From NCBI GenBank assembly GCA_965197475.1, contig CBDANF010000002.1, positions 192,001 to 256,000 on the forward strand: a stretch of 64,000 nt of DNA, written 5' to 3'. Positions within the stretch are counted from its first letter, which is position 1. Each line of letters begins with the position of its first letter. Below the pieces are notes generated by a model. It was not told the DNA's origin and searched no databases. It worked only from the letters and a program-made list of their open reading frames with translations. The DNA comes from Candidatus Poribacteria bacterium (lineage in GTDB: Bacteria > Poribacteria > WGA-4E > WGA-3G). Both the position numbers and the translations under genes were made by a program. Shown here piece after piece: positions 52,225 to 53,814 of this stretch.

Positions 52225-53814
52225 CTACTTTTCATTCTCTTTTGCTGGTTCTACAGAAATTTTTGCCTGAAAGGCATTGATGTTTCCTTTTCCACTAAAC
52301 CAAGTACCGGTAGCACCCAACTGAAAGATTTTACCTTCGTCAAAACTATATCGCATTCTCCCTATCTGTCCAGACGGGATATCCCACACAGAAGTAAGTG
52401 CCTCAGTGGGAATTCCTTTTATAGGCAATTCGGCATCACCGTCAAACAGATCAAACGACCCGCCAGATTTGGCACTACCCATACGGATATCAATCTTTGG
52501 CGTCCCACCATCCTTAAACGCAGTGGTATCTATTGTAATGACATTGTAGTCTTGGTCACCGTGCCTTGGTGCGCGAAGAACATGCAAGACCTCTTGCTCA
52601 AGATGCTCTCCATCAAGCACTATGTTCAAACCGTTCAATATAGATGCGGAGGTATTCTCCCCGAACCCTGGGAATTTCGCATCCAAGGAATCCATGAGAA
52701 ACGTAAGGTAAGCCTCCTCTTCCGATATGCCCATTCCTGAGGGGTTGTCATAGAGATCATCTTCTGGAAGTTTACCCATCATATCAAATTCCGGAGAAAT
52801 AACTAAGCAATCTACCGGTGAATGTTGTTTCCAACCCTCCATGATGGGTTTTGCTAACGGGTGTGTTCTGTTAAAAATCTTTGACTTATCCTTATATCTC
52901 TGTGCCATGTAGGCTTTCTTTCTGGGAGTGCGTTCTAATTCTGCATTGGAAACCCAGATGTTGATAAAATTTTCATTTAAGAACTCTATAGTTCGATTGT
53001 CAGAGAGAGCACCTGCCCTCAAGCCTTTTCCGCTCCCTCAGCAGGACTCATCCGCTAACGGACCATCTATTGAGATAACATGAATTAGCTTAGCTTGTTC
53101 TTCTGCCAACTCCACTGCTTGATATGGAGACATCCAGTTAATTTGTTCTGACTTGTAGAAACATAAACTCAGCGCGCGTTCTGCCTCTTCTTGGGTTATT
53201 GATTCTGTGAAATCGGTGTTTTGTGCCACATCTTCTATTCCTGTTGTTAGTTCCATTTGGGGGCAGAAACCTGCATCCGTAATAGCGTAATCATCGTTTT
53301 TGTCCTCATGCCAATTGACATCAAAGTTCACTGTGCCTTCGGGCACGTACATCTTAAAGAAAGCAATTTTATCTTCTATCTTGTCAATTATGAGATTTCC
53401 TTTAAACTGTGAGGGTGTAAACCATCCATCTTTTAACTTAAACTCTGCATGTATACGAAATTGAATTTCGGCAAATCTATCGTTATACGCACGTAGGCAT
53501 GCCCATAGACCTTGTGAGTCTTCTGCATCCATTTCCAGACGTGGATCGGGATGAAGTTGCCTTAGCAATGTGAGCACACCTTATTTTTCAATTTGCCAAA
53601 GTTCACCAACCGAAACCGATTCCGATGGAAGAAATGTTTGAAAAACCGATTCAGGATACTGCTTCTCCGGTTCAGCAACCTGCAGGTTTGCTAATTCATC
53701 CCACTCCACGTGGAAGTTGTATTGCGTGTATTCAATGGGCGCGATGAAACCTTTGACCAACACGTCTGCATCACCGTCAAGATTAAGCGTAATTTTGTCT
53801 GATAAAATACTCAT
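52225..53814 (-). CDS. Selenoprotein N (SELENON)-like protein with in-frame UGA (Sec) at 53038-53040 and a further in-frame TAA at 53581-53583 (possible pseudogene)
   Basis: Three ORFs lie in one frame, with GGAG RBS before ATG 53814. Read-through gives [20 protein letters not shown]. Motifs FLP, [18 protein letters not shown]-x-[11 protein letters not shown] and KLIHVI follow the SelN order. Confidence 0.8.
53003..53039 (-). promoter_or_regulatory. Candidate SECIS-like hairpin immediately 3' of the UGA
   Basis: mRNA UGA GGGAGC GGAAAAG GCU-UGAG-GGC AGGU GCUCUC UC: GGGAGC pairs with GCUCUC below a short apical hairpin with a G-containing loop. Folded by eye only. Confidence 0.35.

Follow-up and report, generated by a model that had tools for sequence, protein, structure and literature searches.

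Is selenoprotein N (SELENON), a selenoprotein known from animals, also encoded in bacteria, with selenocysteine (Sec) at the same redox motif? The question is raised by a locus on the minus strand of the window, the whole stretch of 64,000 nucleotides from a Candidatus Poribacteria contig that was analysed here. Three open reading frames (ORFs) of this strand, 53581-53859, 53038-53577 and 52225-53022, were found to share one common frame, as the window's ORF list and our translation both confirm. When 52222-53859 was translated with TGA rendered as U, a single in-frame TGA (53038-53040) was seen, lying within the motif S-C-U-G. The original prediction had read through this codon to the same motif and had taken the result for a continuous gene of ~529 codons. 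The first of these claims was borne out by translation and the second was not: the count of 529 silently includes a TAA (53578-53580) that lies between the ORFs 53581-53859 and 53038-53577 and interrupts the gene at codon 79. Because TAA cannot encode Sec, this codon is an ordinary stop. The likely start codon is ATG 53814, which is preceded by GGAGA 6 nt upstream, while the listed ORF reaches as far as ATG 53859. With ATG 53814 as codon 1, the TAA stands at codon 79, Sec at codon 259 and the natural stop (TAA 52225-52227, from the ORF list and translation) at codon 530. The expectation that gene callers would split such a gene holds, as the public annotation contains separate 'hypothetical' pieces of ~260 and 265 aa. 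The best explanation overall, in which we have considerable confidence, is that the locus is one member of a large bacterial family of SELENON homologs that has so far gone unannotated, that the UGA stands for Sec, and that this particular copy is most likely inactivated.

The proposed homology to SELENON was supported by two kinds of search. A BLASTP comparison of the window protein with the marmoset protein P0280, which is entered in UniRef as Selenoprotein N, gave an E value of 3e-35, with 77 of 244 residues identical (32%) and the Sec position aligned. The SELENON motifs given in the original prediction all align in the order stated there. The S-C-U-G stretch of the window protein is matched to DDQSC..SGRTLRE of P0280, and the region encoded by 53041-53577 to SELENON residues 222-448 of the same protein. 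A phmmer search of 1.84 billion representatives returned 557 matches at E<=0.001, animal-type sequences included. Among them is P0226 (E 8.5e-19), a wombat UniRef entry with a long N-terminal extension, whose relatives, one human entry among them, bear the name 'Selenoprotein N' in UniRef and NCBI. The 92-residue upstream ORF gave a weak match to SELENON at F..FLP...G..W.I (E 0.005). Sec is rendered badly in the vertebrate SELENON gene models of the database. Pfam and NCBIfam yielded no family at E<=1 for the read-through protein and two homologs, a PDB sequence search yielded nothing at E<=1, and an ESM Atlas search with the Poribacterial homolog P0003 returned one lead under 0.9, a Poribacteria cluster. 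As judged from these alignments, the locus is a true relative of animal SELENON, with Sec predicted to be encoded at the same redox motif.

The TGA occupies the same column in all 30 aligned loci (30/30), and protein conservation continues past it. TGA is also found in every further paralog matched by a motif scan of loci L051-L082; distant paralogs with TGA at the Sec codon include tandem triplets in another family of the same order. Among the 150 matches listed from a scan of the phylum, 149 contain at least one in-frame TGA: 145 have one TGA only, three have a TGA and a TAA, and one has two TGA codons, which leaves one match with none. For two of the three TGA-plus-TAA cases (L035 and L045), the placement of the TAA at the end was deduced from the limits of the match and the frame. 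TGA or Cys in relatives had been named at the outset as the pattern to look for, and both were found, as continuous metagenomic homologs carry Cys at the Sec codon (SCCGSGK in P0138, P0146 and P0157; ACCATGK in P0229). Gly, Trp and Ser variants also exist within Poribacteria, with Trp at the Sec column of P0121 and Ser (TCA) in G079. The orthogroup of P0003 (loci L088-L108) mixes Sec (TGA) and Gly (GGA/GGC) forms, with 12 TGA and nine non-TGA forms among its 21 full-length matches.

The genome encodes all the components of the Sec machinery that were sought. A genome profile search detected selA (534 bits) and selB (349.8 bits), both above the curated cut-offs, together with selD (370 bits, likewise above its cut-off and with an in-frame TGA of its own) and a gene for tRNA-Sec (75.1 bits, above its cut-off) that has the anticodon TCA and adjoins selB. 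We infer that the UGA of the SelenoN-like gene is read as Sec by SelA, SelB, SelD and tRNA-Sec. The selD gene (G000:C3:3099237-3100163, locus L011) is itself a selenoprotein gene, with the motif KCAG-U-ASKLAPGE; a possible hairpin with a GGGU-containing loop, read by eye and not chosen by RNAfold, lies ~10 nt after its UGA.

A candidate signal for recoding was identified just downstream of the UGA. The RNAalifold consensus is a 6-bp hairpin, GAGGGC-AGGU-G(Y)(Y)CUC, that begins 17 nt past the UGA. In the window, this hairpin, which resembles a selenocysteine insertion sequence (SECIS), occupies 53005-53020 on the minus strand, with the stem GAGGGC/GCUCUC and the loop AGGU. Across 43 distinct sequences, 98.8% of the cells are paired, as opposed to 47-78% in slid controls. 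Six cells are changed on both sides (AGA with GCU or GUU), and the covariation score was reached by none of 500 shuffles (0/500); in L100, the closing pair has in addition changed from G-C to A-U. Positions 27, 30 and 36 of alignment A2, which are third codon positions, do not vary in any of the 43 sequences (43/43). The tetraloop takes the forms AGGU and AGUU. Published consensus descriptions of the bacterial SECIS set numeric limits on such elements, which are taken here as general background. The 6-bp hairpin with its G-containing tetraloop, 17 nt past the UGA, probably recruits SelB. Another candidate, a long stem that pairs the UGA itself in the single-sequence fold, was rejected because relatives do not keep it.

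The architecture of the family was studied on P0003, a Gly form that is 54% identical to the window protein and was modelled from a 58-row alignment with a mean predicted local distance difference test score (pLDDT) of 84.9. A full-length family protein has ~520-535 residues and consists of three parts: an N-terminal beta-rich domain, a thioredoxin-fold domain and a C-terminal beta-sandwich. The N-terminal domain, which is common to SELENON, spans approximately residues 30-260 of P0003 and has few rows in the structural comparison; in the window, codons 80-258 (53041-53577, minus strand) encode what remains of it after the TAA, together with the first strand of the thioredoxin fold, and end in DESC. 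Residues 273-415 of the model form the thioredoxin fold, which matched DsbH with Z 12.8 (root-mean-square deviation (rmsd) 3.9, 125 residues aligned), a cytochrome c biogenesis-related domain with Z 12.2, AGR3 with Z 12.0 and the UAS domains of UBXD7 (9.8) and FAF1 (9.1); DsbD-C, AGR3 and UAS domains as a whole scored Z 9-12 against this region. Transferred to the window, the approximate limits of the domain are 52714-53142 on the minus strand. The C-(U/G) pair of the model follows the first strand of the fold, in the active-site loop where thioredoxins have CxxC; in the family, the adjacent Cys and Sec at this place take the form S/A-C-U-G. Residues 429-557 form the beta-sandwich, which is specific to the bacterial proteins and matched PliG with Z 11.6 (rmsd 2.9, 109 residues aligned; Foldseek agrees) as well as collagen-binding/PPC, GOLD and SID1 ectodomain structures with Z 9-11.5. 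Its approximate limits in the window, transferred in the same way, are 52243-52626 on the minus strand. The sandwich is duplicated in some paralogs, for example P0091.

The Pfam scan, the P0003 model and the structure matches also support the proposal that the bacterial protein lacks the membrane anchor and has gained a C-terminal beta domain. No EF-hand was found, as there was no Pfam domain at E<=1, and our reading of the alignment revealed no membrane anchor in the N-termini of the orthologs. These begin ~25 residues before the conserved domain, and the animal rows have ~200 extra N-terminal residues. In the window's orthogroup, the N-terminus, MSILSDKITLNLDG..., is without a hydrophobic stretch. 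That of the P0003 orthogroup is hydrophobic and, as judged by eye, is likely to be a signal peptide.

Adjacent Cys and Sec residues in the active-site loop of a thioredoxin fold suggest a thiol/selenol oxidoreductase, which would cycle through a Cys-Sec selenenylsulfide. Chemistry of this type has been proposed for the SCUG motif of SELENON, which was compared with GCUG of thioredoxin reductase (PMC12839072). The C-terminal beta-sandwich would probably serve as a partner- or substrate-binding module. The known partner of SELENON is SERCA (PMC9344019), which has no place in a bacterium, so that the bacterial protein cannot regulate it. In one metagenomic protein of 668 aa, P0138, a Cys-Cys SelenoN-like domain stands behind sigma-70 regions 2 and 4 (PF04542, PF08281) and a hydrophobic segment. 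This fusion suggests an extracytoplasmic redox-sensing role in the lineage of P0138.

What, then, is the state of the copy in the window? Its codons 1-78 (53581-53814, minus strand) encode the beginning of the conserved N-terminal domain and align with the N-termini of 29 relatives. The TAA that follows at 53578-53580 on the same strand is specific to this lineage: in its column, the 29 relatives carry Ser (eight), Thr (seven), Glu (five), Ile (three), Ala (three), Asn (one) or a gap (two), and a stop in no case (0/29). Since the nearest relatives in the N-terminal segment carry Glu there, a change of GAA to TAA at codon 79 is likely. Contigs of the runs X1 and X2, which come from one sample, and X3, which comes from a second sample (depth 44), show the same TAA with no differing letter. 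These are three runs from two samples of one study; two further runs, X4 and X5, contain only a minor part of the stretch. X3 differs from the window at five places in the C-terminal part. As it occurs in contigs of two samples, the TAA is real in the sampled population. The genome also contains an intact paralog ~142 kb away (G000:C2:387246-388757; ~1321-2844 of L084, plus strand), an open frame of 534 codons with one TGA in the motif DESC-U-ASGKGLRAVVLS. Insertion sequences next to the disrupted gene point in the same direction. The copy in the window is thus best viewed as probably a recently inactivated gene. The neighbours of the intact paralog, named by eye, are a trmD-like ORF and an ORF resembling that for ribosomal protein L19 (rplS), followed by an RNase HII-like one.

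A number of observations weigh against one or another part of this interpretation. The structural evidence comes from the model of P0003, a homolog of the Gly form, and not from the window protein, to which it applies as a prediction. Insertion of Sec is likewise a prediction from sequence, and none of the sequencing runs listed for the stretch is an RNA run. With regard to the hairpin, four of the six stem pairs are the same in all 43 sequences, the single-sequence fold near the UGA is no better than that of shuffles (z -1.11), and Rfam gave no family match (a search of 52850-53150 returned only a chance snoRNA, E 1.2). The Gly-form orthologs, which have no further need of the stem, keep it nevertheless, with 6/6 pairs in each of the eight recovered (8/8), so that comparison with them does not separate constraint on the RNA from constraint on the protein; in three of these eight (GGC), the loop has changed from AGUU to AACU and contains no G. 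Conservation of the stem may partly reflect the conserved peptide L-R-A-x-x-L or a recent loss of Sec. As for the TAA, the runs that show it may include the source sample of the window, and contigs drop rare variants. Finally, the sequence is still well conserved on both sides of the TAA, and an AGGTG stands just past it with a TTG 8 nt later, a possible site of re-initiation.

The last two points lead to the alternative that the copy still functions, either by re-initiation at GTG 53577 or at the TTG four codons later, or by reassembly of the two pieces. Re-initiation would yield a Sec protein of ~446-450 residues that lacks the first 78. The frame after the TAA is indeed open to the natural stop except for the Sec TGA, the AGGTG is placed 8 nt before the TTG, and the downstream sequence is 79% identical to the closest ortholog. 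Moreover, the TAA is common to two slightly different strains and is therefore not very young. However, the 78 residues that would be lost are conserved in 29 of 29 relatives and, weakly, in SELENON, none of these relatives (0/29) is split at the place of the TAA, and the function could be covered by the intact paralog. Three of the five C-terminal differences between the strains are non-synonymous, which also speaks against function, although so small a number of differences can hardly carry a verdict. All in all, a functional copy appears rather unlikely, and we retain inactivation as the reading of the TAA.

The wider family is a large one. At least one match was found in 131 of the 176 genomes of the phylum, with 895 matches in total, some of which are perhaps partial pieces. 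By family of the order, genomes with matches number 109 of 111 (f1), 10 of 11 (f2) and 11 of 29 (f3). Tandem arrays of two or three copies are frequent (loci L022-L050 and L072-L080), and here gene callers join the C-terminal piece of one array copy to the N-terminal piece of the copy that follows; P0096 (541 aa) is an example. When P0146 was used as the query, the search for related loci found one Poribacterial relative only and the homolog search found 16 metagenomic proteins. A quick IQ-TREE phylogeny of 34 rows and 397 columns, which is unrooted and in which the three longest bacterial rows are unstable, separates nine animal-type rows from 25 bacterial ones by a branch of length ~1.5 with a Shimodaira-Hasegawa-like approximate likelihood ratio (SH-aLRT) support of 100. 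Four of the nine animal-type rows are source-named and the others were labelled by architecture and placement; no named sponge sequence is among them. All 17 Poribacterial rows group in a single clade (SH-aLRT 100) that adjoins the metagenomic Cys-forms.

This tree bears on a suggestion of the original prediction, namely, that the gene reflects an exchange between host and symbiont. Poribacteria are a group known from sponges, and the source-named homologs are Candidatus Poribacteria, as a recent transfer between the sponge host and its symbiont, in either direction, would lead one to expect. SELENON is, furthermore, otherwise treated as an animal protein (PMC7016017). However, the Poribacterial genes cluster with bacterial homologs: the nearest neighbours of their clade are bacterial-type metagenomic proteins, and the animal-type rows lie beyond the branch of ~1.5, whose length argues against recent sponge-symbiont exchange. 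Within the order, the gene family is spread over three taxonomic families (f1, f2 and f3), and its identity to SELENON is only 32%. A recent transfer is accordingly very improbable, and the suggestion was not borne out. Because the tree is unrooted, it would be compatible with a bacterial origin of the family and with an ancient transfer in either direction.

Two further alternatives are even harder to sustain. If the TGA were an ordinary stop, the locus would encode two separate proteins of ~260 and 265 residues and no Sec, which is how the public annotation presents it, as two hypothetical proteins, and insertion of Sec is, to be sure, predicted from sequence. Yet the two pieces invariably adjoin in one frame, separated by the TGA alone (30/30), homologs in which Cys, Gly, Trp or Ser takes its place are continuous proteins, the thioredoxin fold of the P0003 model crosses the junction, and the TGA is aligned with the Sec of SELENON in a genome that has the Sec machinery; we therefore consider an ordinary stop hardly credible and keep to Sec. 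The other alternative, that assembly or sequencing introduced the TAA by mistake into a gene that is intact in the organism, is no more believable, for although the TAA is one base away from the GAA of the nearest N-terminal relatives, the Logan contigs of runs X1, X2 and X3 cover 53578-53580 without any other letter.

The surroundings of the gene contain several further features. Within 4 kb downstream are three insertion-sequence genes, for an rve-type integrase (48500-49330), an IS1595-type transposase (49815-50774) and an IS1 transposase (51301-52095), and a fragment of 138 aa that weakly matches a metallopeptidase (50718-51134). The upstream neighbour (54134-55261, minus strand) encodes a protein of 375 aa with an HExxH motif and a Peptidase_Mx score that, at 24.5 bits, falls short of the cut-off of 27. 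Between this neighbour and the SelenoN-like gene, upstream of the latter, stands a terminator-like hairpin (53978-53952); in a promoter/terminator scan, the interval 53860-53950 contained no sigma-70-like promoter site. Farther upstream, ORFs for the large and small subunits of an aconitase-family enzyme (55579-57823, minus strand; PF00330, 599.6 bits; PF00694, 135.2 bits) belong to ordinary metabolism. The region is flanked by very long ORFs, of 1585 aa at 39559-44316 (plus strand) and of 1267 aa at 58604-62407 (minus strand).

How new is a bacterial SelenoN? A SELENON research group may have mentioned a Poribacterial homolog. The literature searched contained no report of one, and the accessible portions of PMC13326102, PMC13188914, PMC2398784, PMC12013277, PMC9312934, PMC11227280 and PMC7474598 do not mention it; supplementary tables, such as those of BSepDB (PMC13326102), may list one. 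New here is a real homolog of SELENON that differs from it in architecture, carries a bacterial recoding signal and has undergone a large expansion specific to its lineage. It widens the phyletic range of a selenoprotein that has been regarded as an animal innovation (PMC7016017) and would bring one phylum hundreds of selenoprotein genes that are so far unannotated. In humans, SELENON is a disease gene (SEPN1-related myopathy), and the protein was without a solved structure according to PMC7474598; the bacterial family offers soluble candidates for structure and enzymology and natural variation at the active site (Sec, Cys, Gly, Trp and Ser). The window locus itself is of lesser value because this copy is disrupted.

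The family also makes testable the relation between the bacterial SECIS and the selenocysteine redefinition element (SRE) of human SELENON, whose resemblance has been noted (PMC12936836). The SRE, a hairpin described in PMC8704476, PMC3541580 and PMC12936836, lies directly 3' of the UGA; it promotes the insertion of Sec and has been likened to a bacterial SECIS (PMC8704476, PMC12936836). Mutations in the SRE cause myopathy, and those reported are G463V, R466Q and R469W/Q, with Sec at 462 (PMC3541580, PMC12839072). Human R469 is the seventh codon after Sec (+7) and matches an Arg of the window protein in the P0280 alignment; the codon of this +7 Arg, AGG or AGA, forms columns 22-24 in the 5' arm of the bacterial hairpin. 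It is conceivable, though we regard it as doubtful, that animal SELENON and the bacterial genes go back to a common ancestor that already encoded Sec and that the SRE is a remnant of a bacterial-type SECIS. If true, this would be the first UGA-recoding RNA signal traceable across the divide between bacteria and eukaryotes, and SELENON research would gain a tractable bacterial model.

Among known systems, the closest precedent for the finding is SelO, a 'eukaryotic' selenoprotein family later found in bacteria, where Sec-containing forms were reported in 2025 (PMC12013277). SelO is a separate protein family, and neither SelenoN nor SelN occurs in that report (0 occurrences). With thioredoxin reductase, the bacterial protein shares adjacent Cys and Sec residues followed by Gly, SCUG being similar to GCUG (PMC12839072). 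In thioredoxin reductase, however, this motif forms the flexible C-terminal tail of a flavoenzyme, whereas here it would lie in the active-site loop of a thioredoxin fold, and the Pfam scan of the read-through protein detected no flavin domain. The best structural matches of the Sec-bearing domain, judged on the P0003 model, are DsbH (Z 12.8), DsbD-C and the UAS domains; sequence identity to these is 12-16%, and they have CxxC or no redox motif, in contrast to C-U here. The read-through protein had no thioredoxin match in Pfam.

The nearest relative by sequence remains SELENON itself. The two proteins share a homologous core that runs from F..FLP...G..W.I through FRIHAEF, WF(T/S)P.QF.G and PQMEL to the thioredoxin-like domain, and both have Sec at the aligned S-C-U-G, the SCUG motif described for SELENON (PMC12839072). 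Both genes also have an RNA hairpin just 3' of the UGA, within the same coding stretch. In contrast to SELENON, the bacterial protein has neither transmembrane anchor nor EF-hand and carries an additional C-terminal beta-sandwich. The bacterial gene has its signal close to the UGA, whereas SELENON has a SECIS in the 3' untranslated region, and, unlike SELENON, it occurs in multiple copies that often stand in tandem.

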